Positions 3,001-56,438 of a stretch of DNA of 64,000 nucleotides are shown piece by piece (position 1 is the stretch's first letter; the number at the start of each line of letters is the position of its first letter). The notes under the pieces are model-generated. The model worked only from the letters and a program-made list of their open reading frames with translations. It made no database searches and was not told the origin of the DNA. The DNA is from Felis catus (Eukaryota), in assembly GCF_018350175.1 (NCBI RefSeq), contig NC_058382.1:53322001-53386000 (forward strand), written 5' to 3'. The translations under genes and the position numbers were made by a program.

Positions 3001-4601
3001 GAACATGTCTTGAAGTCCTACTTTCAACATTGGTGCAAACCAGGGGCAGTTGGGTTAGTTAATTCAAGCTGAGGGACAGTCCCTAAGGCAGATTCCAAAG
3101 CCACCTTTGGTATTATTAGGGTCAAGCGACATCATCACTTGTTTCCACGGCCAAGGCGCTAACATCACGTTACCCAAGGATGCTCACCATGGAAATTGTG
3201 ACATCAAACAGCTGTGGTCTCTGTGGACGTTCATGTTAGAAGACCTTCCTTAGAAGGCACGATCTTGATAAACCATGCAATTTGGGTAGATTTGCACACC
3301 TTACGATATAACATGCACCTACAGAAAATGCGAGTCAGGATCGGAGATGCTGCAGCAAAGGAGAATTTAATCTTTTTGTGATACTGCTTAAGATGAATAT
3401 TTTGTAATAGGCCCAAGAACCATAATATAATCCAGACTGTGTTTCTGAGAAGAAATGAAAGGTAATTAAATGACTTCCCAAATGGTGTGTGATTTAATTT
3501 TCCTACTCTAGCTCGAAAATTGCCAGAAATGAGCCACCCGCTGTACATAGTGGAAATTAGCAAGAGAGAAGAAAGCTAGCAGCTCTCCATTTTTGACTTT
3601 CACTACTGAAATCCCTTAGCCAAAGTGACTCTCTGAATATACACTAAGTAACTCTCCCAAGAGTATCAAGTATTGAACTTTTCATATATCCGCTTATAAT
3701 ATCTAATATCCCGGAGTAACTCAGAGGAATTGTCCTCCTACCCCAAGATTCCCCATCTGACCAAATGCCTTTCTCTTCCTTGCTCTCACCTGTCAATCAA
3801 ATTCACAGATGAAATTTGATTTCTCTCCCACCCGTAACCTTATATGAAAAATTACCAGGAGGGTCAGGACCAGTGTGAACCTTGCCTTAAAAGTTCATTA
3901 ACTCTTTGCTCGCAATGGATGGTTTCCATGTAACAAAACCTGCCATTGGGCCTAGATCATCACATTTAATAGATGGCTTGCAAATTGCAATTATAAAGAC
4001 ACAGACAAAAGACGGGAATAAAAACAAGAGGAATAAAGTATTGGCACTGTGTGGACACTCAGATTAATCCCCAAGGTACATATACATCAAGGTAAAAATC
4101 TGTGTGCGAGAACTATTCAGGAAAAGGTTAATTCCGTGCAAGGCTAGGAAAGAAATCATAGTTACATATTCACAGTCAGGTTATTCAAGCAGTGTGTAAA
4201 AAGTAAGCAATCTGACACTCTTTTTGAATAATGGGGGAACATAGGGTTCTGGTTTCCAACACTCTCAGATTCATTGGATCCTTAAAGTGTCTCCTTCGCA
4301 AAGAGTAGCATTTTGACAGTGTGACTTTTGCCCCCCTCCTCGGTTTCTCTAGAAATCAAAAACTGTATTTCATGCAGATATTTCAGCAAGCAAGTTTTTA
4401 ATAATAAAAAAAAAATATCAAACTTTGTTCCATTAGCCAATAAGAGGTCACAAGAACACATAAAACAATGACGCTAAATAATTGTTGGGGTACAAGTGTC
4501 AGACTCACTTTCTAAATGAGGAGGTTTCATTATTAAATTCACTCTGGGATGCTTACAATTGAGAACCGATTTAAATATCTTAATTTCTTTTCTTTTCTTC
4601 T

Positions 4602-4603
<2 letters not shown>

Positions 4604-4644
<41 letters not shown>
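4604..4644 (+). repeat. T41 homopolymer
   Basis: Direct reading. Confidence 0.95.
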
Positions 4645-4647
<3 letters not shown>

Positions 4648-5274
4648 GGAGAATGAGATTTCTGCCTCCCACCCGTCTCTCACTCTTTCCTTCTGCCTCT
4701 AATCGAAGCGGGCAGTGGCTCCAAAGTCACATTTGGATACGGGGGGGTGGGGGGCGGGACATACTGTGTTTTGACGGGACACCAAACTTTCCAAATGTGA
4801 GTATGGAGTGAATCCTAAGAGTCTGTAAATTGGGAATGTTTACGAGGCCCAGGGAAAGCTGGCCAACGACCACGGATGCCGGTTGTACACCTTCACCCAA
4901 AATGCGTGATGTTCTAACATCAGGCCCGGCTCCATGAGTCAGGAGAGATGCATGCTGGTTAAGGCGAAAGATGTGAGGTTTCCTCAAACCCAATCGATCA
5001 CTCTGTCCACCACACCTACGTAATGAGATAAATGCAGAAACGCATGCATGCTGGTCCCGCAAACTTGGATCTCCCCTTCAGCCTCCCGGATCACCGTTGC
5101 AGTTACGTGGGGAAACCCAGAGACTACAGTTACTAAAGCAGGAGCTTTTCACACCTAAGAAATTATCAGCATTCCTTGCTTGCTTGCTTCCTCCCTCACG
5201 GAAAAGTTATTCAAACGAGCACATGCAAATCAGAAATCAAGATGTACCTCTTTGACTTCAGGCAACAGGGTTTT

Positions 5275-5308
5275 TCACATCACTGATGTAGAGGATTCCC
5301 TTGGGTAC
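5275..5308 (-). CDS. MAF: MAF distal alternative coding exon (393-aa isoform; C-terminus M-YPRESSTSVM*)
   Basis: Minus strand reads ...tttactaaatcag|GTACCCAAGGGAATCCTCTACATCAGTGATGTGA. Joined to the same donor it gives ATG TAC CCA AGG GAA TCC TCT ACA TCA GTG ATG TGA. This matches the recalled YPR(D/E)SST(S/T)VM tail of rodent/avian long c-Maf. Intron is 5309-18013 (12.7 kb). Confidence 0.9.
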
Positions 5309-6349
5309 CTGATTTAGTAAATATATTAAAATAAACAAAGGGTAATTAATAACCATGAAGAAGGTTTCAAGGACAGTACGTCAAAGGCAGCCTAGCTATC
5401 TATGAAAAAGGCAGAATTAGACCCAAGGAAGAGGGATTTAGGTTCACTTGCTTTAGCATCCTGGCCTCAGCCCTGCCAGAGGAGGGGTTCACACGGAAGA
5501 GAATGGCACGCAAGGCAAGGTCACCCCCTCTGACTACGGCTCTGACCCCAAGGAAGCTGAGATATAGAGATACTTACGCGCCTGACAGTCTGGATCAGCT
5601 TTGAAGTCCAGCTTTGAAGCCCATCCCTCTGGGAGCCCAACCGGTCCCCCTTCCCCTGGATCTTTGCTAGGGCACATTCTCTTCCATTTTCCCCCTCCTC
5701 CTTCCTTGCTCTGGTCTATTCTGCTGGTACCGCTGACCTTAACTACAAACGTTCTCTCAACAAATAGAAACGTTCAGATACCACCCTTTTATTTATTAAC
5801 TTCCTCTCTGTTTAAATTAGTAGCAGGGAATTCTTAAAACCAGGATATGAAAATGAGGTTGCTTTAAAAAAAAAAAAAAGCCTTCTTGCCTCACAGTGAA
5901 TAACAAAGCACAGTAATTCAAAGTAGTTAGCTTTCTATGGTTCAAAAAACCCTTATTGCTATTAGCCGCACTAATGTAAGTGGCAAAATAATTATCATTT
6001 ACTGTACAGAGTCCAATATTTTCCAGACAGCAGCTTAATAACAAAGCAGACCTGTCATTTCTCCCTATAGTTAGTCACACCATACAAGTTCAGACTGTCA
6101 AAATATATTTAAAATCTAACGTTAAAAATTCAACATGGTTACAGAGAATCTGTGTACAGTAACTGCCATAAACCAGTAAGTCAATCTGATTTTTTTCTTC
6201 CAAGATGGATACTCGCTTATGTCCCTTTAATCCCCCACACTTTTATTTGGTTAACTCCAAATTGTCACGGGTACGAACAAATTCACTATACATATACACA
6301 TGCTGAAATCCGTAGGCTACTGTAACTGCCCATAGAATCTTTCTTTACT

Positions 6350-6573
6350 GGGGCGCCTGGGTGGCGCAGTCGGTTAAGCGGCCGACTTCAGCCAGGTCAC
6401 GATCTCGCGGTCCGTGAGTTCGAGCCCCGCGTCGGGCTCTGGGCTGATGGCTCGGAGCCTGGAGCCTGTTTCCGATGCTGTGTCTCCCTCTCTCTCTGCC
6501 CCTCCCCCGTTCATGCTCTGTCTCTCTCTGTCCCAAAAATAAATAAACGTTGAAAAAAAATTAAAAAAAAAAA
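6350..6573 (+). mobile_element. Feline CAN-SINE (SINEC_Fc type), full length
   Basis: GGGGCGCCTGGGTGGCGCAGTCGGTTAAGC head, (CT)n region and A tail. 16-bp TSD with 2 mismatches (AGAATCTTTCTTTACT / AGAATCTGTCGTTACT). Confidence 0.95.
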
Positions 6574-8769
6574 AGAATCTGTCGTTACTTAAATTTTCAT
6601 TGAGCGTAACTCGCCTGGTATTTCAAATGCCCCTTCTCTGGATGGTATAACTATGCATTCAGACACCTGGACAAACACGTTTGTGCTCTTCTCTCTGTCA
6701 GAGCTGCCCCGAGCACATCATGGGTCTCCATTCACACATCTTGTTAGAAATGCCTTCAAAATCTTACAGTGCAGACTACTTTTCTTCGTGTCATAGTATC
6801 TATTAATCTTTGCTAAATATATTATTTCTATGCCAACAACAACAACAACAAAAAAAAGGAAACAGAAAACACAAAGTTAAAAACCTGGAAATGTTATCAC
6901 TAACATCAATTGTTCTTCGTTTGAAGTTCCGAGGGCTAATCTCTAAACAAACAAACAAACAAACAAACAAAAACCCTTTCTATTTAAGGATCCCCCTCCC
7001 CACAGCCCCGTTTAAAAAAAAAAAAACTTTAGGAAAAACAGATTCTTTTAGAAATGCAAGTGAATACTTTAAAAGCTTAAGAGATTGCGGAAAGAATATT
7101 TTTGTAATTCCTTTGGGGCAGTGCAAACATATGTTAAGCTTCTTCAAGGAGTATTTACATGAGATCATATACTTGTGAGGCGTTTTTCAATTTTAGAAAA
7201 ATATTACAAAGCAATAATTGAACATAGGCTTTGCAAAATGCTCCTCTGTCTTCCTGACAGTCTCATTGACAGTCTCTGTTATTTTTGGAGAAAACGAATC
7301 AGGCCTCATTAAATGTAATATTTGGCATCTCGCCTGCAATCTCATAAAGTAGATGTCCTTTTTAGATCATTGGTGTCATTTTCCTCAAGATGACCTCTAC
7401 TCTTTGGCCATCCGGGCAGCCCATCCTGTTATCAAGGCATTTACTTTCAAAAGGGCGGGGGAGAGAGGTTCTGTGCCGACACCTGAATAGAGTCCAAAAG
7501 CCAATGCGGCTTCTCTGTTCTCATCAGCTTTACCCAGGCTAGTCATCTGGGGAAGAGTGGTGGGGGCAAGGGGTTCTCGAAAGCGGAGGCTTTCGAGCTG
7601 GACCACCATCGTGTCATCCAGGCCAGACGTCTGTTAGCGCAGAGCCTCCAACAGTTGGAGACATTCACCTAATGATTAAATAGTATTTTGAAATAGCATA
7701 GGAGCATGCAGTGATGTTCCAAGGGAGATTTTAAAAGGTCTGGGTGCCCACACAGCTCAGGGAATTAACATGGACCTGGCACCCTGAAAATACGCTGTGG
7801 ATGGTCAGCATGTGTCTCTGCACTGCCCCGCATCGCCCCAAGTAGGCGAAGGATTTATGGGTAAATCACCCTAAGACAGACATTTCAGAGTAGGTTTTGC
7901 TCATGCCTACAAAATTATGGAGTAGAGGGATTCACTGTCATGTGATCGTGTTTATTTTGTAATGTGGAAACTGCAGATTGATCTTTCAGTCGCTTCTCCC
8001 TCTACAGTGCGTTAAAGGGTTCCCTAGATTGGTAGGTAGATAGATGGGTCATAGATTGATAGATAGATAAATGGCAGATCAAAGAATATGTTGCATCTAT
8101 TGCACGAAAAGGGAAAGACTGAAATACCATCTTTTCACAGATTTAATCTTAGAAGGATTACCAAGGTTCCCCCCCCCTTTCTATCAAAAGGGACTTTAGT
8201 GCAATCTGACGGTGTAAAATTGTCTCAGATGCTGAGATCATTGTTTCAGTTTTAACATATTTTTCTGCACATTACCAAATCCATCCTGGAGGGACGGAAA
8301 AAGAAAAGAGACATCTATTTAAGAAAGTGTAATGTTCCTTGCCTCCGTATTTGTGGATCTAAAAAACTGAGGGTCCCCATAAGTAACAGGCCCTACATGG
8401 GAGGACTCCTTTCTGAAATTAGTGCTTTTAAAATCTGTGGTGGTAAAACGGGGCCTGAGCGCCCCAGATTGGCCGGGAGCACTGTGTGAAATCCGCGAAA
8501 GCAAGCAGGACCCTCTTGCTGGGGCTGCTGTCGAAATGCTAACAAAGTTGGCTTGACTCGCTTTCCTGTGTAAGGAACATCAAACCATACCACGGGAAAC
8601 CCCAACCATACAGAGATCTCTGGGAAGCCTGTAAAACTTGCTATCTGGGTTTCCTTCTTTCTTTCTCTTTTCCCTCCTCTCTCTAACCAGAGCAGGAAAA
8701 AAGACAGATCTGAAAAAATAGGCCGGGAAATTAATAGAGGAAAAAAAAAAAATCAAATGATCTGGAGCC

Positions 8770-9520
8770 GATGATCTTCAAGCTCCTGGGTCCGCTGGCG
8801 GGTGGGGTGGGGGTCCCAAGGTGAGGGGTGGAGCCTTTTAGGGCCGAATCAGGCTCCCTCCCTCTGCGCCCACCGGGGAGCGCCGAAGAGCTGACAGTTT
8901 TGATGTCCCCTGGCGCTCCAGTCTGGCCAGGGCAGTCCTCTTGGAAAATAAACCAAATTCCAATACAAATCCGAGGCCCCCGCTGGGGCGTGCGCGCCTG
9001 ATGGGCGCGGGGCACAGGGGCGCGCTGGGGACCGCGGCGGTTAGCGCCCCCGGGCGCCGGGGAGGCATCCTGGGCTTCTCCGAGGGGAGCCCGGTGGCCG
9101 GCATCCAGGAGCGCGCTAGCCTCCCGGGCGGGCGCAGCCTCGGGCCTGGGGAGAGCAGGGACTGCCCGGTGACCTCAGGCAGCCTCCAGGACCCGCCCCC
9201 GCGGTTCCTGCCTTCTGTCGTTCAGCACCTGCCTTGCCCAGCCCGGTCCCAGCCCCGGATCCCAGAGCGTGGGGCGCATACCTGGCCCCACGACTCCCCA
9301 GCAGTCAGGTCCTGGCGGTGATGGCCAGGGCAATGGGCCCCGAAGAGTGTATACAGAGACAGGGCGAGAACAGAGTGTTTGTGTGCAGGGGGGCGGGGCG
9401 GGGGGTGGCGGGAGAGGAAGCCCGGAGGTGGACAACCTCAGCATCCTCCGGGGCCTTCATGTCCTGCACTCCAGGCTTCAAGACCCTTGGCACCAGAGGC
9501 CGCAGCCGGTGCTGAACATT
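8770..9520. promoter_or_regulatory. Secondary (orphan) CpG-rich island inside the distal MAF intron
   Basis: Abrupt GC/CpG-rich block (e.g. ggcgtgcgcgcc, gaccgcggcggttagcgcccccgggcgccgg) with GC boxes, in otherwise AT-richer unique DNA. Confidence 0.65.
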
Positions 9521-12500
9521 CCAGAGCCACCTCCCAGCTCCTCTCCCATCCAAGCTTGCCAGCCCTTCTCTCCAGCCCTGGGTTTGGCCACACCTAAACT
9601 GGGGCAGGAGGGACTTTGACCACGACCTTAGCTTGGGCACTGCCTTCTGGCCCAAGGGAATGACCTCCGACTCTCTGATGGCCCTGGGCAACTAGGCCTG
9701 GGAGAAAGAGGTGGTAACGATTACAGAGAGGGCACTGGAATGGGGCAAGGGTCAGGTGATAAGAGGCCAAAGCCCTGGAGCTCAGGACATGGGTCATTCT
9801 ACTTAGGAATCATGGCGATCTCGGGGTCTGCCAGTCCCTTGTCAGTCACCCTGCAAGCAGATCACTTCTGGGGTGAGGTGGGGCCCCGGGACCGACCTAG
9901 CTTTGATCCCTGGATTGGGATCTTAAGCGAAGGCTGGCTTCTGAGAGCACTACTCCCCAGCCCTGCACGCCAGCCCCCTCCTGTTCTCTGCTCCTCTGGC
10001 CTAGTTTGGGGTGGCCTATCCACTCCGGGACCCTCAGAGCATTCCTTCTGGAGAATGCCCTCAAAGAAGGCCAGGAACCCACTTACGGGGGACAGGGGCA
10101 AATTCTGGCTACAAAAGGGAATCTGCACCCCCGACCGGACTTTTCAGCCCAGGATGGCCTTCGCAGCCATCCTGGGGAATTCTCACAGAAGAGCGGTTTT
10201 CACGCGTCTCTGCCCGGTTCTGTAAGGCTTCGTGGCCTCTCCTATTCCCTGACTGAAACCACCGACCACAAGGAAAAACCATGTTTTGGAATCTTAGCTT
10301 GGAAATGCTCAAGGTTGGTCATCAGAATATTTAGAATAAACTCAGAATCCAAATCCCCAGCGTGTAGCTCACACCCAGGCCTGGGCTGGGCGGGGACCGA
10401 GGGGTGTGGGGGGTGAGCACAGAACTATTTCCTCTCCTGCCCTCCTCTTCCCGAATGTCCACAAACACCCCTCCCTCATCCTCCCTTCTTGAATTAATGC
10501 CCCTTTCTAATCGCCACTAAAGATCCAAGAATCTGTGGAGAAGAGAGGAATGCGATTTTGCAATCCTAAGTCCTAATTATGGGGGGGGGGTGAAATTGTT
10601 ATTTGACAAAAAGAAAGGAGAGGAAAATGAATTTTGTTGAACAGAGGAAGAGGTGCTCAGGAGATGATTATGCTCTGAGTAAGGGACTGTCATTCCACTC
10701 ATAGCCTCTCTGTGGCAAATGTGTTTTGCGAGCGTCTTCAAACTGTGCAACTCCGATGCAAAATTCATATAAAGATCTGATTTCCGTGTGCTACGGACGT
10801 GTTCTTTCTTTCTCGGCCTTACTACAGCGGGCAAACTTCCGGAAAACACACATACACACCAAGTGCTTTCAGACTGAAACAATAAAAACTGCCGTGACCT
10901 CCTAAAACCTACCACGGGGACCCTATACGTTTTGCCAGAACATGTCTGTCTGGTCCAAAAGGTCACCGCTGTAAAATGGCACACTGATACCTTTACAAAG
11001 GTCCCAACATTGAGACAGTGACAATTTCCCCTGATTCCTCCGTTTGGGTGTGAGCGCTGAGGCTGTTTGGGAAAAGGAAACAGGCCGTCAGACCTTGTTT
11101 GCACCTGGCCCCTGTGAACGCTGGGCCTGTCGTTAGCCAGCGAGCAAGTGAAATTCAGACTGGCCACTGGGATTATTCCCGGGAGTCTTGCCTTCCGAGT
11201 CCTCCCCACCACTCTGCCTTGCTACCCTCATTTCTCACCGCCCACAGAGGGTGCAGAGAACAGGAGCCCGGGGTCCTGCTACGCCTTTGCGCAGGGCAGT
11301 TGGATCTGCTTTGTTTTCTGTTTTGTCCCTCTCTAAAGGGTAAAGATGTTCCCGCATTGTTACAGGACTGTACTCCTTTATGCCCCGACAATCATGAGAC
11401 AGCCTGGGAGACTGAAATTCTCTCACCCTGTCCCCTACCCCCCGCTGGAGAAAAAGTGCTAGACAGAGCTGGGTTTGTTCAGGAGCCTGGGCGGAGCAAG
11501 GCTTTAAGAGAATTCCCCTTTCCTGGGGGCTGTTTGATGTCTAGGGTTTGAAGATTTATATCAAAAGTGAGAAAGGCAGGGTTATCAGAAGGTGGGGTAG
11601 GGCCCCTGCTTGCTTTTAAAACAAATGCAAAAACAAACAAACAAATCCTGACTCAGACGTCCGGACCCTGGACCATCACTCACACAGACGGCCGCTGTAG
11701 GCCCTGCTTTGGACCTGGGACATCTTTCCCATTTAGGGCGAGCCCGCAGTGAGGGCAAACTTCAGGTTCCCCTTATTTGCCTCGCAAGAGCAAGGAAGAC
11801 ACCGACCCCGAAGAACTCATTCAGCATCTTGAGGAATAATCAGAAGCGGTGGAAATTACAGCCCATCACCGTGGATAAATCTTCCCTTAAAACAAAAAGA
11901 AGACTAAGACATTTCTTCATAGGAAGGGGCAACATTATTTTTTAGAAATCAAATGAAAGTAAATCACAGCGGGGAGCCTCTCAAATCAGCCATCTAAAGG
12001 GGGAGGAATCTGGCCTCCCGATTCCTTTTATGCGTGTTTACATGAAAAGTAAGGCCAGGAGCCTGGCTGTGTGTTTCCCTGGCAAGGAAGTCGAATGGCT
12101 GGAGGTTGTCACTCATGTATTTTAGCCTCCCATCCACCTCGGTTAGGCTTTAACTACCGACAGGCAAAAAATAGAGACACCTGTGTGGCAAGCAGACTTT
12201 TAAAAATATCGATTGGCCTAGAATACCAGAGGAGAATGTTTTCTAAAGCCAAGAGTGTGTGAATACGGAAGTAAGTTGGCCTAAACAAAGCTAGGGCAAC
12301 ATCAGCAAAAGCCTCCCAACGTACTATAGTCTGGGAACCTTTGTGTCAGAAGCAACTTTAGTTGTTCAGACAGGGAGGCGCTAAGAACACAGCCCTACAG
12401 GTCTGCTGCAGACCATGTCTGTGAAGGTGGCTGTGGCTTGCGCTGTTCATCGTGTTTAGCAGGAAAGCGGTGGTTTGGCATAGGGGAGGTCCTGTCCGAG

Positions 12501-12767
12501 AACAGAAGTATCCAGAGTTGATATTACTAAATAAAAACTACTGGGCGAAAGGTAGGAGGGAGAAAAGATCAGGGCATTAGACTCTTGCGTTACATAATAA
12601 ATAATTTCCCATTGGGAAAGGGGCCCAGATGGGTATGGCATGGAGGCGGAAAATCATGGCGTCCAGACATCGTGTCCTCACCAAGATCGGGACGTGGCAT
12701 CTCTGTCTGTTTCGACGTCAGTCTGTGACCGTGTCAGATACATTGGGAAAGGTTCTTACGCTTTTGA

Positions 12768-12784
12768 TTTATTATTTTTTTATT
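12768..12784 (-). terminator. MAF: Tandem AATAAA signals; probable 3' end of the 413-aa isoform
   Basis: tttatt on plus at 12768-12773 and 12779-12784, about 750 nt downstream of the exon 2 stop. Confidence 0.55.
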
Positions 12785-13521
12785 TTTTTTTTGTAAAAAA
12801 AAAAATATATAAAGTAGGGAAATACAAGGGAGGCGATTTTATGAATGGCCTGGGAGCGGCAAAGTGGAGGAAAAAAAGGCACCTGGAGGGTGTGGTTTAA
12901 CTAACTTTCGTGTTTTGCCGGGCGGTGTTTTCACTCACAGCTATGGCTGATAAATGAACGCGTTCAATACGATACTATCCGGGGCCTACCAGACAGCCAG
13001 GCCCCGCTTGGGCTGGGCTAAAACTCCTACCCGTGGCATCCGCTTGGGGAGGGGGAGGCGAGCAATTTTTGTTTCTTCTTCTTAGTAACATTATCTGCCA
13101 GAGAAACAATGAAGTGTGGAAAAGTACTATTTAGAGTGTGCGTGTCTACAGAGGCTTCCAAAACGCTAGCTGTTACCTTCTGGGAACCTTCTCTTCCTAC
13201 CAACGGACACGGAGATCTCCTCTAAACTTCAGGGGATTTTGAAAAGCTGATCTTGCAGGCTGAAAACAATGGCACCTATCTTAGTTTGTCGCGTCGTGGA
13301 GCCAGAAGCATCCATGCGCTTTTTCCTCTAGGTTGGCAGAGAAGACCTTCAGGCCAGGGGGACAGTCACCAGCACAGAGGTTAGACATGGGCTAGCTTTC
13401 TTCTCTAACACAATCATTTTTCTTTAAAAAGGAAACTAAACAGAAGTCAGGGGCAGGGTGTTGTCCAAGGCCGCAAATAATAATAATAATACATTGTTAA
13501 TGTACGGTTTGCGCATAAATT

Positions 13522-13615
13522 TCATTTTGTGAATACACTGGCAGGTACGCTTTGCTGGGCCTTCCAAAACGTGGGGTATCCCACTGATGGCTCCAACTCA
13601 CGAGTGGGCTCAGTT
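13522..13615 (-). CDS. MAF: MAF alternative terminal coding exon (long isoform, 413 aa; C-terminus [31 protein letters not shown])
   Basis: Minus-strand acceptor ...aaattcctttcattccacttacag|AACTGAG. Joined to the donor AT|GTGAGT (exon 1 ends at 18014) it gives ATA ACT GAG... in frame, 30 more codons, then TGA at 13524-13522. Closely resembles the human 403-aa isoform tail as I recall it ([31 protein letters not shown]). Intron is 13616-18013. Confidence 0.93.
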
Positions 13616-15676
13616 CTGTAAGTGGAATGAAAGGAATTTTAACACTATTTAGACAAGGACTCAGATGCAGTGGAAAGGGAAAGCTAGATTTCCTTATACG
13701 ATTTCTCTCTTTTTTTCTAATTTGGAGACTTATTTCTGCTAAGGGCACTTCGGTAGAACTTGGGGTTTCTTTGTTAAACACACACACACACACACACACA
13801 CACGCGTGCATTTGCATTTGCCACTCTTAGCACACTGCAAAGTTTTTAGTAAGGGTGATCTCTAAAACTGCCCTTCACTAAGGAGTTAACCTTCTCTTAA
13901 AACCAGCCACCCAAACCCCATTCTGCCAGCGCCTCTCTGCTTTGTAACCTTGGGGGCCAAACCCCGCTTATGATACTGAGCTGCCCTGTGGAGTCCTAAC
14001 AAAATGCTTAAGGGTGGCACGACTGTTTTTCCTCCCAAGTCCTGTCCCTCAGGAGGTGACTGCAGGCCTCCTGCATGGCACTCTTATTTTGAGAATGTGT
14101 TTGCCTAAAAGCTCTCCTCTGAGGCCGAGCGTCTTGCATAAAGGGGATCTCCATTTCTGCCTCTTCAGGGGGAAACTGCGTATCTCCTCGTTGGGAATCA
14201 GAGAGAAAAAAAAAAGCCGAAAAAACAAACAAACAAAAATCTCCAAAGCAGAGAACAGCTAGCTAAGTTCAGCACACCGAAGAAGTGCATGTACCATGAA
14301 GACTTTTGTTAAGCCACATTAAGTGTGGATTCAGGAGTTCAATCCAAACTGGCACCTAAAGGGAAGGTCTAAATGCAGTGGGTATAGTGTCTTTGCGTTC
14401 TGTGAAAAAGAGGAAGGAAGACAAGGTGATCGACTGGTCAGAGCTCACCCCCGCCAAGCGCAACCTGTTTTCTGCCAAACAAGGCCTCCGTTCAGAGTTG
14501 CAGTATTATCTTAAAAAAACAAAACAAAACAAAACAAAAAAAAACCCCAAAAGCCCGAAAACAAAATAAAACAGAAGTCATCAAGTTTGGCTATATTTTG
14601 CGAACAGGGTTGGCTTTGTCTAACATTCTTTGAGCATTCTCTGGGAGGTTGATTAGGAGTGCAAACTGCACGGATTTGTAACATTAGTTGCATGAATTTG
14701 TGTCATTTTAAAATAGGTCAGCGCTGTTAGGGAAGGTGGCTGGACTGACTTCCTCAGTCATCTTTTTAAGTTAGCCTCCTGACACAGCCTCTTTGGGGGC
14801 AAATACCCATCAATTAAAGCACAGCCTTTATTCGACCAAGGCGTTACTTTTTGCTCGCTTGTATTTCTGGAGTTAAGGTGATTGGAAATCACTGCCAACT
14901 CGCCTAAGTGGAGAAGCCCTCTGCTAAATATTCACAGTGAAGTATGATTTAATAACACAGTTCAAATCCAGAGATGTACTTGGGGTTATGTAAGTAAGGA
15001 GGAGGGGGGTTCTTGTTCCTGTTTAAGACAAATGACCTTCCAAATTACAAAAAAACAAACAAACAAAAAAAACCCAAAACCCAAAAACCAACAAACAATT
15101 TGATTTGTCCAAAGTGTTGATGTTAAGTCGTGGCAGGCCTTGCTACCAAGAAAATCATAGTGTGTAAAGGGAAGAAGGAAAAATACTCAATTTTAGCGAA
15201 AAGGCAAGGATTGTTTATCTTTACCATTAAATGCATATGTGTCCAAGCCCCGTCTGCCAGGCCCTGTCTGCCCGGCCCATTTCTTTCTAGATTGGCTTGC
15301 TGTTGGACCAGAAGCTCAGGGCAATGCTGAGAAGGCCCTACTCTCTCTGGTTGGGATTTTCGTTTGTTTGTTTTCACCAGAGGGCAATGATGTCTCAACT
15401 CACTTGAAAACTGAAAACTTGTGGGGAAGGGCATTTTGAGAGGTCAGAATTTACATTTATATTAAATATTGCTAATTATTCAAAGGGACTGTCCCCCCCC
15501 CTCCCCCCAGCTTCACCGAACAGCCTATGTTTCACCCTGAATGATTGCCTCCCTACTCCTCCATTAATCCTTCCTCTGGAGATAAAGGATGCATTTTACA
15601 CTTCTAATGCGGTTTTGGGCCCAGTTAAACTGCACACTAAGAAGCTGAGCACGGAATCAAAAAAAAAAAAATGCAG

Positions 15677-15682
15677 TTTATT
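15677..15682 (-). terminator. MAF: Polyadenylation signal AATAAA (intronic poly(A) site, short isoform)
   Basis: Plus tttatt equals minus AATAAA, followed by CTGCA and a U11 tract plus GU-rich sequence, at the end of the AU-rich UTR. Confidence 0.7.
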
Positions 15683-17818
15683 ATTGTAGATTATTCTTTC
15701 TCTCGATATAACCAGAATTGAAAATGAAAGAAAAGCACATAGGAACATCACGCGTGGTTAGTTAGTAACTCAAGATATAAAACAATTTTGCACAGCAAAA
15801 TATGTAAAAGAAAAGTAACTGACAAGATTTTTTTATATTTATTGTGGTAAGATTTACTTTTCATTTTTTTTTTTTTTTAAAGACAGGATGTCAGTCCCTG
15901 AAAAGAACATTTACTGATTATTGCCTTTAAAACTGTGGATTTTTTTTTTTAAGTTACAGAAAATCCAGTTCTGCACCACAATACAACTGTAAAAAAATCT
16001 GCGTCTTAAAACTGTGCAGTAATGCCATTTTTATAACTGCATAAATTGTATTAGCGTTCTAAACAGTTTTGCAAATTCTTTTTGTATTATATGCTTGCAG
16101 GTTATATCTTAGTGCAATTCAGTCCCAAATACTTTAAATTTGAAAAAAAACACATACATTTTGAATGTAAAATACCCCTACAGATATAAACAGGGGTGTT
16201 TCCCCTTTAATACTTTGGTTTTCAATACAGTCAGTGGTATAGCAAAGACTACAGATATCCAACTTATATTTTAAGTTGCGAGCACATGCTTGAATAAGCT
16301 ACTTTTTTTAAACAGTCCCCTTGCAAACTCTACCCCCCTTAACATCACAACAGTAAACAATTTAGTGCATCAATCTTTAAAAAAATCTACAGCTAAACAG
16401 ACCTAACTCTTTCAAATTTATCTATAACATTCCTTTATCTGTAGCATACATTTTAACTGGGCTAACAGATTATAAAAACTAGAATTAAATTATATACTAG
16501 AAACCCATAGCATTCCACATTTGACAATGACCAAAAGCCAAAAAGAAAAAAAAAATAATAATAATAAAAATAAAACAAACCAAAAATCACGGGGCAGAAT
16601 TCTTTTTTTTTTCTTTTTTAAAAATAAATTTTAGACTGCTTTCTGCAACAGCACAATTTTAGTCCCCCAAAGTGGGGTGTCATTCTTATTAAAAAGAAAG
16701 CATGAAGAGTTCTTTACTGTTAGATTTTTAACCCATTCTGGCATCTTTGACAAGGAATGCCTTCAGTGCATTTCCAATGGGAGGCTGAAGTTCTGAGTAA
16801 CTCAAAGCAGTTTGGGGGATGCAAACTTTCATGGGAAGAAGGCTCTAGGGTGGCACTTTGTTCTGAACTCAAAAAAGTCATGAGGCAATAAAACAAAAGT
16901 ATGAATACCATGCCATAAGTCTTCGAACGTCCATTTCCAAGCCAAAAGGAAAAAAAAAAAAGAAAAAAATAATTATACCATACATGTCCAGCATGCAGGC
17001 TTTTTTTTTATTAATATAATGTCTCTTTTCCATAAAGTCTTTGAAACAGTTATAGTTCATTGTTGCTAAGACAAAGTAGCAAGCGTAATAATGCATGAGA
17101 TGAGAATGAGTTTTTTAATGGCAGACTAAACTCTCAGATTTGGCATGATAAGGCCAAAACTCACAAGTCACACCCAGAAGGTTGATGCGGGCTTGATTGT
17201 GGCAGGTTCATGAGGATTTTTTTTTTTCTCTCTCTCTAGTTTAGCATAACAATGCTAAAAAAAACCCCGATGGAACTCAGCGCGCTGCAAGTCTATAACA
17301 TTTCACATTTTTTTTTCCTTTGCAAGCTCAATCTCACATATGAAGAACTCAGGAGGAGGAAAAAAAAAACTTAGCTTTTTTTTTTTTTCTTTTTCTTTTT
17401 TTCTTTTATCTCTGAGGAGATGGGTGGAAGGAGCCTGAGGGTGGAGGTCGGGAAAAAGGGCAACAACACAGCAAGCTCCAAAAAAGTAAAATTAAAAACA
17501 AAAAAAAAATCCAAACAAAATAAAACACACACACACACAGAAAATGAACACCAGCTCATGAACTGAAAAAGAAGAAGAAGAAGAAAAAAAAAACCCCACA
17601 AAAACAAAACCTGTGAATGATGCCGGCTTCAAAGGTGAGCATGACGAACTCTGCTGAGATCTTTGAACACGGTGGGGGTGGGGGGGGGTGGGGGTGCGGT
17701 TTGTAAATAAAAACAAGCTAGCAAGTTATGGAGAATTTCAGATTGGCAATCCATGAGCCAGACATCCACTCCCTCCCCATTAAAAAACAGCCACCACCAC
17801 CGCCAACTGGGAGCAGGC

Positions 17819-17872
17819 TGTGTGTGTGTGTGTGTGCGCGTGTGTGTGTGCGTGTGCGTGTGTGTGTGTGTG
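17819..17872. repeat. (TG)n/(CG) alternating purine-pyrimidine tract
   Basis: Direct reading; reads as (CA)n in the MAF transcript. Confidence 0.95.
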
Positions 17873-18007
17873 CAGGGGCACGGGGCCTATCTCGGCAGGG
17901 GAGGGGGCGAGGTGGCGGCGAGCACGGCTCTGGAAGTAGCAAGCCCACACCCGAGTCGGACCCCCACGGAGCACTTATCAAGGTGGCTAGCTGGGATCGC
18001 GTGTCAG

Positions 18008-19980
<1,973 letters not shown>

Positions 19981-19989
19981 GAGTTTAAA

Positions 19990-20160
19990 GCAATTGCTGA
20001 GTTTTATAGCACTTGTGACGTCAGGTCCAAATGGGAAATTGACTGGTACTCCAGGCCAATGGGAGGCGGCGAGAGCGGCCGCGATTAGCATAATAGATAG
20101 AAACAAGGAAACTTTTCGGAGCTGTCAATCAGGGCCCAATCAGCTGACTGTCAGCTGGGA
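19990..20160 (-). promoter_or_regulatory. MAF: MAF core/proximal promoter; TSS estimated near 19970-19985
   Basis: TATAAAA on minus at 20008-20002. Perfect CRE TGACGTCA at 20016-20023. AT-flanked half-MARE AATTGCTGAG at 19992-20001. CCAAT at 20056-20060 and 20136-20140. Palindrome CAGCTGAC-T-GTCAGCTG at 20141-20157. The TSS is inferred only from TATA spacing. Confidence 0.85.
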
Positions 20161-21269
20161 CAGGCTGGCTTAACCCTTTGCGCGCCGCAGCCTCCCAGGG
20201 AGGGAGCGAAGCCTGGCGCAAAGTTTGGCGCAAGAGGGGAAGGAGTAGTCCCGAGGGGCTTCGGGAACCCGGGAGGACCCTCTGCTTTACTTCGGAGCGC
20301 GAGAGAGGCCTGCCTTCCGGAGCGCCGGCTTGCCCCCCCCTCGCTCTGCCGGGGGATTGGCCTGTCTCCCCTCCCCGGGAGCCCCCATCCTCGGGACTGC
20401 GAATTCGCTCGGCATCTTTTTTCCTCTTTGCTCCACCTTTGGCACCCAGGTGTCTGCTCCAGGAACCTTCCTTCCCGGAGCCGTGGCTGTGCCCGGAGCT
20501 CAAACTTGGCCCTTCGAACCAAAGAGCGCAAACTCTTTGTCCCTCTTCCCGGGGCCCGCGCGCTCGGGGGCGCAAGGGTGCTGGGGGCTCAGGGTCCCGA
20601 CTGCGCGCAGGACGCCACTTCTCCGCGTGCAGCCCGAGTGGTTCCGAGTCCGCGCGGGGAGAAAGCCCGTTTTGTCGCCCTCTTTGAAGGAAGGGAGATA
20701 AGTTGTTCGGGGGCCATTACGCGCGGGGACTGGCTGCCCGCTGGCGTCGCGTGCCCTGGGGGGGGGGGGGGGGAGCGAACGCCTACGCGAGTTAACTCCG
20801 CAGAAGCTCAGAGCCTGGTCAGCCGGGCTCTGCCCTTGGGCTTCCAACTCTGGCCCGAGTTCGGCCTTAGAGATTCATATTTGTCTCTCTGTCTCTGTCT
20901 CTCTCTCTGTCTCACCCCACCTCCCCCATAGACACACGCACACTCACGCACACGCTCACCCACCCCCATATGAAATCTGACTCCTGTTTATCAGGGTCCC
21001 GCGCGCCCTTTGCACTTTCACGTTTCACTGAATTATTTCAGACTTGGCGCTGGAGAGGAGCAAGGGGTGTTTGTACGCGGGGGTAAACAACACCCCAGCC
21101 TTCCCCAACTCCCCTCGAAGGGTTAAATTTTAAACCGCGGCTTCTCGACCAGCCCGGAAACCCACAGTGGGGGTGGGGGGGGGGTGGGGGGGCGCTGCCT
21201 CTCCCCCCTCCCTGTTGCAGATGCTAATAACTATTCAGTTTTCTAGATGGATTCATTTAAAGCTTATGC

Positions 21270-27981: not shown

Positions 27982-28029
<48 letters not shown>

Positions 28030-28038
28030 CTTTTTTTT

Positions 28039-28071
<33 letters not shown>

Positions 28072-34299: not shown

Positions 34300-34525
34300 T
34301 ATGCCTGTCTATCCATCCATCTATCCATCCATCAGTTTCTCCATCTTTCTGTCCATTTACCCATCCATCCATGCATCCATCCATGCATGCATCTATCCAT
34401 CCATCTATCCATCCATCCATCCATCCATCCACCTGTTTATCCATCTTTCTGTCCATTTATCCATGCATCCATGCATCCTTGCATCCATCCATCCATCCAT
34501 CCATCCATCCATCCACCCATCCATT
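34300..34525. repeat. Degenerate (CATC)n tetranucleotide repeat
   Basis: ccatccatcc arrays. Confidence 0.9.
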
Positions 34526-39937: not shown

Positions 39938-40009
39938 GAAGAAGAAGAAGAAGAAGAAGAAGAAGAAGAAGAAGAAGAAGAAGAAGAAGAAGAAGAAGAA
40001 GAAGAAGAA
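39938..40009 (+). repeat. (GAA)24 perfect trinucleotide repeat
   Basis: 72 bp, uninterrupted. Confidence 0.97.
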
Positions 40010-53857: not shown

Positions 53858-54197
53858 CATCCATCCATCCATCCATCCATCCATCCATCCATCCATCCAT
53901 CCACCTATTCATCTGTCCATCCATCCATCCATCCATCCACCCACCTATTCATCTGTGCATCCATCCATCCATCCATCCATCCATCCATCCATCCACCTAT
54001 TCATCTGTCCATCCATCCATCCATCCATCCATCCATCCATCCATCCATCTATCCATCCATCTGTCCATCCATCCATCCATCCATCCATCCATCCATCCAT
54101 CCATCCACCTATTCATCTGTCCATCCATCCATCCATCCACCCACCTATTTATCTGTCCATCCATCCATCCATCCATCCATCCATCCATCCATCCATC
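53858..54197. repeat. (CCAT)n array with a higher-order unit (CCACCTATTCATCTGT interruptions)
   Basis: Direct reading. Confidence 0.95.
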
Positions 54198-56187
54198 CTC
54201 TCTCCATTGGTAACAAGGTCTGAAGAACCAAAGAATATGGCACCACTATTATTCTACTTCTGTAGTTGGAGACCCAGAGCCGTAGAGAGGTTAAAAAATT
54301 GGACCAAGACGACCCAACTAATGAGGGATGGTGCTGAGACTGAGTCATCTATTCTCTGGTTCACTCTGTTTGATTCATGGACAACCATTTCTTGAATGCC
54401 TGCCTTGTCCAGGCTCCCAGCCCAGGTACAACAGGAAGGTGAGGCTATCATTGACTGACCCCTGCCCTCAAAGAGCTCACATTCTTGAGTCAGATCTGTG
54501 TGCTGGGGGCCTAGCTGTGAGTCGTGTGCCCTGAAAAGTCGTGGCCCGAATGCAATGGCAGCTGTAAGCTGGTGCAAACATCCACCAGGTGCCAGGAATG
54601 CAACTGACATTGTCAGGGGGTGACTGAGGGTCATAGATCTCACCATCCAGCTTCCATGGGGGCGCTGTCTGTAGGCTACCTTTGCTTATGGATGTATTGA
54701 CTGTATATCTCATTCTAATAGCTACTGCTTTCAAGAGGACACTGCTTTCAAGGCAAGGCAAGCCTTGGAGCAGGTGGGCTTGCTAGAGCTACATTGGAAC
54801 CTTCAGGCAGTGCTTCCTCGAGCCAAGCACATAATCTGTGACTGTTGACTTGTGTCAACCAAGGGCATGGATGTCTCTATAAAGGATCACTAAATTATGG
54901 GGGAGGGCATATTAGTGGAAGAAACAGGTTGTGCAAAGGCACGTAGGTGTGAATGAGGATGGAAGAACAGAGCAAGGTGGTTGTGCTGCTGGAGCACAGG
55001 TAAGGGGATGTGGTGGCTAATGGAGGGGCATGGAGATACCTCAACAGTTAAATGAGGCTTCACGGTGCAGGGTCTGCCATGCTAGCTGGAGAGCATGACC
55101 TTATCAGAGCCACAAAGGTATCTGGGCAAGGGAAATGTGTACCCAGATTTGTGCTTTAGGAGGAACGTGTGGCTGGGCAAGTCCGGAAGCAGAAGCAGTA
55201 ATTCGTGGAATATTGCATTGGTGGAAATGAGGGCCTATCCTAGACTCAAGGAATAGGAATGTGACAGAGGCAGCAGATTCTCAAAATGTTTTTGGAAAGT
55301 AAAATGGGAAAGATGTGTGATGGATGGAGTACTGAATGAAGGAGAGAGAAGAGCTCAGCTCAGCGGTCAGGCCTCCAGCTTGGAACCCGGGTGGATAATT
55401 ATGATTATGATATTATGATATATATGATATTATGATATTATGATTTTTTTTTACCAGGTTAGGGACCATGAAGAAAGAGGCCAGTGTTGAGGAGTCTTAG
55501 GTGTCAATATGCCACCCCAGTAGAGATGTCTAGTAGGCGGTTGAAAATCTGGCTCTGGAGTTCAGAAGATAAAGTACTGTTTAGCAAGAGAGATTGGACA
55601 GTCGTCAGAATAAAGAAAGAGGGCAGCACATTGATGTGATACGTACCACTCGCGACCACTTCCGCACCCAGAGCAGGCATCACTAATCAATCCTGGAATC
55701 CTTTTTCCTTTGAGCCTGACTGCTTGTGGACCCTACTGTTGCCTACAGGGTAGAGCTGGCATGGAAATGGAAATCTTCTTGGTGGCTGTCATAGAGGTGA
55801 TGACGGAAGCCATTGGGGAATCGGTTGTGGGTGTGTGGGCATGAGGAGTGGGAAGCACCGAGGCTCCACATCTAGCTGTCATTTAAACAGTGTTGGCTTT
55901 GATGGATGGATTCGAATTCCATTGTCTCCACTGACTGGCTGCGCGGACTTTAAAGATTTACCCAAACACCTTAGGTCTTAATTACTTATTTCTAAGACAC
56001 GGATTAACAATAGCCTTTCATAGAATTTTGGATAGACTTATGGTCACGTAAAGTGTTCAGAACAACGTGACACCCACAAAATGCTTAATAAATATTATTT
56101 GGAGGTAGTGAAGAAAGCAAAGGAACGTGCCAAGATCAGGAAGGTCTCCTCAGACACTATCCAGAGCACCTTAATACTTCTGATTAC

Positions 56188-56315: not shown

Positions 56316-56365
<50 letters not shown>

Positions 56366-56438
56366 TCTCTCTCCTTTTCCCCCACTTGCACATACACACA
56401 CACTCTCTCTCTCAAAATACATAAATAAACTTAAAAAA
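56188..56438 (+). mobile_element. CAN-SINE with expanded (CT)n
   Basis: ggggtgcctgggtgacgcaagttggttaagc head. Confidence 0.9.

Follow-up and report, generated by a model that had tools for sequence, protein, structure and literature searches.

The 64-kb window of Felis catus DNA analyzed here (the window being the whole stretch, to which all coordinates refer) contains the gene for the transcription factor MAF, which is read on the minus strand and whose alternative intron holds a CA-rich tract after its 5' splice site and a UG-rich tract before its 3' splice site. The two tracts can pair over 29 nucleotides (nt), and we weigh here whether such an RNA bridge acts in the choice between the C-terminal forms of MAF or is an incidental pairing of microsatellites. 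The bZIP part of the encoded protein is 99–100% identical to named placental and mammalian MAF proteins. The short isoform ends in ATG TGA (18015-18010), its last sense codon and its stop, and the consensus donor GTGAGT (18013-18008) overlaps the two. The nearest good acceptor downstream reads ...TTCCTTTCATTCCACTTACAG followed by A and ends at 13616, giving an alternative intron (18013..13616) of 4,398 nt with its AG at 13617-13616. Joining the donor to position 13615 produces an open frame of 413 amino acids, in which the final Met is exchanged for a 31-residue extension. An exon encoding YPRESSTSVM (5308-5275) lies 12.7 kb from the donor that it shares with the near exon. Read from the sequence, one donor thus appears to serve two alternative acceptors in addition to read-through. 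A sequence-only reading of this DNA had placed the donor, the acceptor, the CA tract, the distal tract and the 383- and 413-amino acid gene model, all of which were confirmed, but the two-way choice it drew between the 383- and 413-amino acid forms is incomplete, as the same donor also reaches the conserved YPRESSTSVM exon at 5308. The features are collected in Table 1.

Table 1. Positions of features at the MAF locus in the window and the basis on which each was placed
Feature	Coordinates	Strand	Basis
MAF exon 1 coding sequence, short isoform, 383 amino acids plus stop TGA (18012-18010)	18010..19161	-	open reading frame (ORF) list; bZIP identity
5' splice site GTGAGT	18008..18013	-	sequence; begins with the third base (G) of the Met codon and contains the stop codon
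CA tract, 54 nt, CG-interrupted	17819..17872	-	Tandem Repeats Finder (TRF): 27 copies, 88% matches
5' arm of predicted 29-bp bridge	17837..17865	-	in minimum free energy (MFE) fold of the whole intron
Proximal (UG)7	17525..17539	-	predicted local partner of CA tract when bridge absent
Span of three AATAAA hexamers (17012, 15843, 15682), the best intronic poly(A) candidates	15677..17012	-	consensus matches only
Distal CGCG(UG)12U = (GU)13, perfect; 3' arm of predicted bridge	13778..13806	-	TRF: 13 copies, 100% matches
Polypyrimidine tract and acceptor AG (13617-13616) of 'long' exon	13616..13640	-	15 of 20 pyrimidines at -23 to -4
'Long' exon 2, coding part, 31-residue ending then stop	13522..13615	-	spliced frame; annotated in other placentals
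Second acceptor (AG 5310-5309) and 'medium' exon, G + YPRESSTSVM + stop	5275..5310	-	same donor; intron 12,705 nt

The sequences of 42 of the 120 listed MAF proteins were examined, and the main endings after ...PEFF among them are an M followed directly by the stop, which is the read-through form, MYPRESS(A/T)SVM, or the 31-residue 'long' ending and its variants, with some other C-termini in a few reptiles and birds. The MYPRESS(A/T)SVM ending is found in frog (as MYTRESSTSVM), birds, echidna and placentals. Among these proteins, the 'long' ending occurs in placentals only, namely primates, pangolin, fox, degu and seal, the seal form having a frameshift near its end; the human long isoform is annotated as P0023. 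Between the present species and the primate form, 6 of 30 residues of the 'long' extension differ, next to a bZIP region that is 99–100% identical. As judged from these proteins, the near 'long' exon is the younger and faster-changing of the two, and the far exon at 5309 is ancient and deeply conserved. The literature on c-Maf isoforms, splicing, polyadenylation and the untranslated region (UTR) yielded one review, which in its passage on isoforms lists three human forms (373, 383 and 403 amino acids) and states that no difference in function between them is known (PMC7033575). The 383-residue length of the protein is explained by a low-complexity His/Gly/Ala region, within whose coding sequence a CCG/GGC repeat (18405-18513, minus strand) encodes 23 glycines, compared with about 10–11 in seal and pangolin MAF.

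The CA tract begins 141 nt into the intron and 138 nt past the stop codon. With perfect blocks of 14, 10 and 18 nt, it has the cluster of at least three CA dinucleotides that characterizes hnRNP L elements. The distal tract ends 162 nt before the acceptor AG, and its (GU)13 would by length suffice for multimeric binding of TDP-43 or for a pUG fold, which takes at least 12 GU repeats. The 381-nt surroundings of the distal tract are single copy in the genome, so the tract is not the tail of a repeated element and a transposon origin was ruled out. The complete purity of the distal repeat, compared with 88% for the CA tract, suggests that it is a younger or more active microsatellite.

Recomputation of the pairing between 17865-17837 and 13778-13806 gave the 29 paired nucleotides that had been proposed, comprising 27 Watson–Crick and 2 G-U pairs with 0 mismatches. 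The duplex energy of this bridge is -57.3 kcal/mol, compared with -26.1 kcal/mol for the CA tract with the proximal (UG)7. For the whole-intron fold, 100 nt of flanking exon was included at either end (4,598 nt); the MFE structure has an energy of -1260.0 kcal/mol and includes precisely the 29-bp helix. When all pairs between the CA tract and the UG tract were forbidden, the MFE was -1236.5 kcal/mol and the CA tract paired with (UG)7, as it also does in the fold of the first 650 nt alone, in agreement with the earlier proposal of a local hairpin as the alternative structure; in the full MFE fold (UG)7 pairs elsewhere. Among the long-range helices predicted for the intron the 29-bp bridge is dominant, with the (UG)7 hairpin as its predicted fallback. 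Taken alone, (UG)7 forms its best duplex with the perfect (CA)9 block at 17836-17822; wherever a fold pairs it with the CA tract, it takes the 5' block of the tract. Because the (CA)9 block lies outside the bridge arm, the bridge and the (UG)7 pairing need not exclude each other, which weakens (UG)7 as a strict competitor.

One explanation of this arrangement is a structural switch, in which a bridge formed during transcription would shorten the distance between the donor and the 13616 acceptor to about 310 nt, loop out the poly(A) sites and favor the 413-amino acid form, opposed by the local CA:(UG)7 hairpin, by hnRNP L on the CA tract and by TDP-43 on the UG tract. With the far exon taken into account, such a switch would also favor the near acceptor over the ancient one at 5309. 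The predicted pairing, its membership in the MFE fold, its advantage of 23.5 kcal/mol and the appearance of (UG)7 as the fallback are as this explanation predicts. Any CA/UG pair would, however, pair automatically, and the roughly 4 kb of transcription between the two arms would probably give the local hairpin and proteins time to act first. We regard the switch as quite improbable.

The closest known system is that of the bridging introns described by Lin et al. (2016), in which AC repeats following the donor and GT repeats preceding the acceptor bridge the intron and are needed for accurate splicing, independently of U2AF2 (PMC4691745). In that study, co-occurrence of AC and GT repeats is described for teleosts and lamprey and not for tetrapods, save for a slight enrichment of GT at 3' splice sites, and single instances of bridging introns are poorly conserved. 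Co-enrichment was found in 200-nt windows, the strict class being defined by the hexamers ACACAC and GTGTGT within 50 nt of the 5' and 3' splice site, respectively; many of the fish introns have a weak pyrimidine tract, and in simulations six repeats were enough for bridging, with an effect independent of intron length (PMC4691745). Like the teleost and lamprey introns, such as intron 5 of zebrafish cep97, the MAF intron has AC after the donor, GT before the acceptor and predicted pairing between them, and its tracts fall inside the 200-nt co-enrichment windows. This geometry, together with the small number of repeats that sufficed in the simulations at any intron length, counts in favor of a switch. 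In contrast to the strict class, the MAF tracts lie at 141 and 162 nt rather than within 50 nt; the host is a mammal, outside the lineages with enrichment; and the intron is long (4.4 kb) and alternative, with a normal rather than weak pyrimidine tract at its acceptor. The likeness to fish introns to which the sequence-only reading pointed covers the 200-nt windows and the predicted pairing; it does not extend to the strict 50-nt rule, and the signal is not reported in tetrapods (PMC4691745). The background on which that reading drew is correct, both for AC/GT bridging in teleosts (PMC4691745) and for binding of hnRNP L to CA and of TDP-43 to UG repeats (PMC5959245, PMC13558559).

Long-range RNA structures that decide whether a transcript is spliced or polyadenylated, or which exon is used, have been described for Drosophila Nmnat, for human ATE1 and in the PCCR catalogue (PMC8052449, PMC7797038). 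The proposed MAF switch resembles these cases in that a kilobase-spanning helix would loop out poly(A) and alternative sites in competition with other helices. Their helices are unique and conserved sequences backed by covariation or mutagenesis, whereas both arms at MAF are simple tandem repeats, a class that was removed from the human pre-mRNA catalogue of conserved long-range pairings before the search (PMC8052449). The same source puts forward, as a hypothesis for human genes, that long-range structure suppresses premature intronic polyadenylation, which would fit a switch at MAF (PMC8052449).

The untranslated region of other species was viewed through stray database ORFs that cross it, mapped back by tblastn. 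Query frames of 85 and 118 amino acids through the CA tract led to P0122–P0125, and a 109-amino acid frame through the distal UG tract led to P0121; P0126–P0128, also matched in the search with the CA-tract frames, were dropped as low-complexity noise. In P0029 (495 amino acids, named Bos mutus grunniens), AHTHTHTHTH stands for about 30 nt of CA, flanked by the same conserved sequence that borders the CA tract of the window. The P0029 'protein' is an annotation artifact that exits the MAF frame at ...PEF and then translates about 140 codons of 3'UTR. In P0125, HARTHTHT corresponds to about 24 nt of CG-interrupted CA where the window has its CA tract; a UG run of about 4–5 units, shorter than in the window, lies at the position of (UG)7, which P0122–P0124 carry in identical form. 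P0121, the sole foreign ORF near the distal UG tract, starts 80 nt downstream of it and is uninformative on the tract itself. The expectation that the tracts occupy orthologous positions was thus borne out for the CA tract and (UG)7, which in these sequences are old, position-conserved and length-variable, and the distal tract lies outside the sequence compared. Metagenome contigs searched for exact patterns, using conserved flanks of exon 2 and of the stop/donor region, gave zero matches. The human reference is not known to have a long UG run at the position of the distal tract, although the human gene makes the long isoform; if the run is indeed absent there, the bridge is not needed for this splice, which is a lead rather than a result.

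The conservation of the two proximal members raises a more local explanation, by which a conserved CA:(UG)n hairpin with a 330-nt loop is the element of the proximal 3'UTR and the distal tract is a lineage-specific newcomer that competes with it; if unspliced mRNA keeps both tracts, the long duplex could in addition compact the 3'UTR or be a site for double-strand-binding proteins. This would accommodate the CA-rich and UG runs at both places in P0125, the identical (UG)7 of P0122–P0124, and the predicted hairpin both in the first 650 nt and in the whole intron with the bridge barred. Both members are nevertheless present in only one foreign sequence, P0125, where the UG run is just 4–5 units; simple repeats allow no covariation; and in the full MFE fold (UG)7 is engaged elsewhere. 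We consider this explanation very unlikely.

The alternative intron of MAF also serves the unspliced short form as its proximal 3'UTR. It contains AATAAA at 17012, 15843, 15682 and 14832 and ATTAAA at 17119, 16211 and 14953, and the AATAAA hexamers at 17012, 15843 and 15682 are each followed by U/GU-rich sequence. From these candidate hexamers, intronic polyadenylation of the short form is possible. If unspliced mRNA instead runs past exon 2, both tracts would share one mature 3'UTR, and shielding from nonsense-mediated decay (NMD) or a duplex within the 3'UTR may then apply. The seed of miR-155 was uninformative as a 3'UTR marker, with zero 7mer-m8 sites and one 7mer-A1 site at 10500 on the minus strand of 1-20500. 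Downstream of the 'long' exon, an (AAT)5 repeat (13476-13491) lies 31 nt past the stop (TGA 13524-13522). The only AATAAA hexamers within 5 kb past this exon lie in A/T-rich low-complexity sequence (12768-12792) with poor U/GU content after them, so the 3' end of the long mRNA is not obvious from the sequence.

Each tract may also be considered on its own as a protein-binding site. By strong consensus, CA repeats are bound by hnRNP L and UG repeats by TDP-43. Both proteins repress non-conserved exons, the repeats bound by TDP-43 being mostly intronic and some of them upstream of the 3' splice site (PMC5959245). TDP-43 associates with GU repeats at a rapid on-rate and with very high affinity, in competition with the pUG fold, for which 12 repeats are required; there are about 20,000 human pUG tracts of at least 12 repeats, mostly intronic and near splice sites (PMC13558559). 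Through UG repeats TDP-43 acts on non-conserved cryptic exons (Ling 2015) and on CFTR exon 9 (Buratti 2001) (PMC5959245, PMC13558559). When bound to CA-rich elements near stop codons, hnRNP L protects long-3'UTR mRNAs from NMD (review PMC7407380, citing Kishor 2019), and enhanced crosslinking and immunoprecipitation (eCLIP) data link HNRNPL with AC repeats and TARDBP with GT repeats (bioRxiv 10.64898/2026.05.04.721407). An entry for MAF is absent from two supplementary files of the spliceSTR preprint. The long CA run of MAF lies near the 5' splice site and near the stop codon with a long 3' region after it, as in the CA elements of hnRNP L; the rules for hnRNP L repression concern exonic CA near the 5' splice site, whereas the MAF run is intronic. 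Earlier work (Hui 2003, Hui 2005) reportedly described CA-repeat elements of hnRNP L, including the enhancer in eNOS intron 13 and intronic CA regulators. Like exons controlled by TDP-43, the lineage-restricted and fast-changing 'long' exon has a pure (GU)13 in the intron upstream, and unlike cryptic exons of that kind it is annotated in several orders and its tract is 162 nt from the acceptor rather than adjacent to it.

Two separate protein platforms would account for these likenesses. The CA tract would be a putative hnRNP L site that modulates the donor or shields long-3'UTR mRNA from UPF1-dependent decay, and (GU)13 a putative TDP-43 site that damps the 'long' exon. The conserved position of the CA tract, the placement of an intronic UG repeat beside the 'long' exon, and the restriction of the 'long' extension to placentals with its divergence from the primate form are consistent with such an arrangement, as are the block to NMD by hnRNP L (PMC7407380), the repression of non-conserved exons through CA and UG repeats (PMC5959245) and the eCLIP links (bioRxiv 10.64898/2026.05.04.721407). 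However, the NMD argument presupposes a long 3'UTR of the short mRNA, annotation in several orders makes the 'long' exon an atypical cryptic exon, and microsatellites can stay in place neutrally. On balance this explanation is unlikely.

How often chance gives such a pair was estimated from the genome-wide abundance of AC/GT tracts. Perfect alternating tracts of at least 24 nt were tallied independently by their starts (67,377 + 33,612) and by their ends (54,509 + 46,480), and both sums are 100,989, evenly split between the orientations, in 2.43 Gb, or one tract per 24 kb. With a threshold of 18 nt instead of 24 nt the A-phase starts increase by a factor of 1.20. The window contains four AC/GT tracts of at least 24 nt and nine perfect runs of at least 13 nt. 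Under a uniform model, a UG tract of at least 24 nt together with a CA tract of at least 18 nt anywhere in a 4.4-kb intron has a p of about 0.009, and across the genome chance alone predicts about 10,000 same-strand CA..UG pairs no more than 5 kb apart. The exact 29-mer CGCG(TG)12T is present in 445 copies in the genome. AC/GT tracts that lie in opposite orientations on the same transcript can always pair, so that complementarity is automatic, and A-to-G decay of the CA strand leaves G-U pairs, so that pairing survives it. With this G-U tolerance and the 445 copies of the 29-mer, the shared CGCG register, which had been offered as evidence, is weak support and was rejected as a sign of selection. 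The same 29 letters reversed have 5,179 copies in the genome, a twelve-fold asymmetry of CG-containing flanks beside TG repeats.

We favor the explanation that the MAF tracts are independent microsatellites of the AC/GT class that differ in age and whose effects, if any, are small and mediated by proteins, and hold it to be the probable one by a modest degree. It is favored by the abundance of AC/GT tracts and the roughly 10,000 expected pairs; by the missing tetrapod signal in Lin et al. (PMC4691745), together with distances that fall outside the 50-nt definition; by the good polypyrimidine tract of the acceptor, in contrast to the U2AF2-independent fish introns, which also counts against a switch; and by the difference in age suggested by the CG-interrupted CA tract, with CA runs in P0125 and P0029, and the pure distal tract. 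The strong single-strand binders available for both arms, hnRNP L and TDP-43, and the absence of a known functional difference between c-Maf isoforms according to the review cited above (PMC7033575) point in the same direction. Several observations weigh against this explanation. The bridge is the strongest helix of the intron and its presence in the MFE fold is worth 23.5 kcal/mol, and the loop of 4,030 nt that it would close takes in all seven of the candidate intronic poly(A) hexamers found. Both tracts lie no more than 200 nt from their splice sites, in the AC-upstream and GT-downstream order of the fish class, for which p is about 2e-5 per given intron under the uniform model. The position of the CA tract is kept in at least two other species, as read from their sequences, and the tract could be in use. 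Finally, as simple repeats were left out of the pairing catalogue, absence from such lists says nothing. At about 2e5 introns per genome, the p of 2e-5 corresponds to about 4 introns, and the geometry is unusual for one intron chosen beforehand, a few such introns being expected per genome without selection when one is picked out afterwards.

With independent microsatellites as the favored explanation, the CA tract and (UG)7 would be old and the distal (GU)13 would have arisen independently and is probably younger. Protein-free RNA at equilibrium would adopt the 29-bp bridge. In nuclear transcripts, the CA tract would emerge about 4 kb ahead of its distal partner and would first be tied up by hnRNP L, the nearby (UG)7 hairpin or the two together, and the GU tract would be captured quickly by TDP-43. 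With such early capture by hairpin and proteins, an effect on the three C-terminal forms is more likely to be small and protein-mediated than to act via a selected bridge, and we infer that the bridge itself has not been under selection.

Further features of the window surround the MAF gene. A 475-amino acid antisense frame starting with ATG (17728-19155, plus strand) covers the whole GC-rich MAF coding sequence and almost certainly reflects base composition rather than a gene. The sequence at about 9000-10500, located between the alternative 3' exons, is GC-rich (0.57–0.62 in 1-kb bins) and could be a CpG island or a regulatory element; short GC-rich tandem repeats lie inside this stretch at 9237-9412. 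Long pure simple repeats around MAF include a perfect (GAA)24 at 39938-40009, (CATC)85 at 53858-54198, (ATCC)53 at 34311-34524, (TA)45 at 27983-28071, (TC)28 at 56318-56373 and a 61-nt T run at 4584-4644. A scan of 4000-20500 against Rfam at gathering thresholds gave 0 matches. Between 0.78 and 0.92 of the sampled words from 13300-18300 are contained in 20 sequencing runs of unlabelled kind, from which no inference on expression was drawn.

The MAF tract pair is a tidy candidate for testing and not a discovery, as CA/UG pairs are so common that little follows from a single neat example. In practical terms, the analysis yields a corrected gene model, in which the MAF donor has two acceptors plus read-through, together with a position-kept CA tract and proximal (UG)7. 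Complementary AC/GT repeats make up a large class of potential long-range mammalian RNA duplexes that has deliberately been left unexamined. It is improbable in our estimate that MAF contains a working mammalian AC-GT bridging intron, in which the helix, set against the CA:(UG)7 hairpin, hnRNP L and TDP-43, would determine a three-way choice at one donor between no splicing (383 amino acids), the placental-specific near exon (413 amino acids) and the ancient far exon (10 additional amino acids). If true, it would be the first functional case of fish-type bridging in a tetrapod, in a transcription factor of lens, immune cells and myeloma, and would mean that repeat-driven bridging, thought to be largely lost in land vertebrates, can re-arise from ordinary microsatellites. 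Variation in microsatellite length would then be tied to the isoform output of a key transcription factor, and the repeat lengths would be an evolvable dial on MAF isoform choice.

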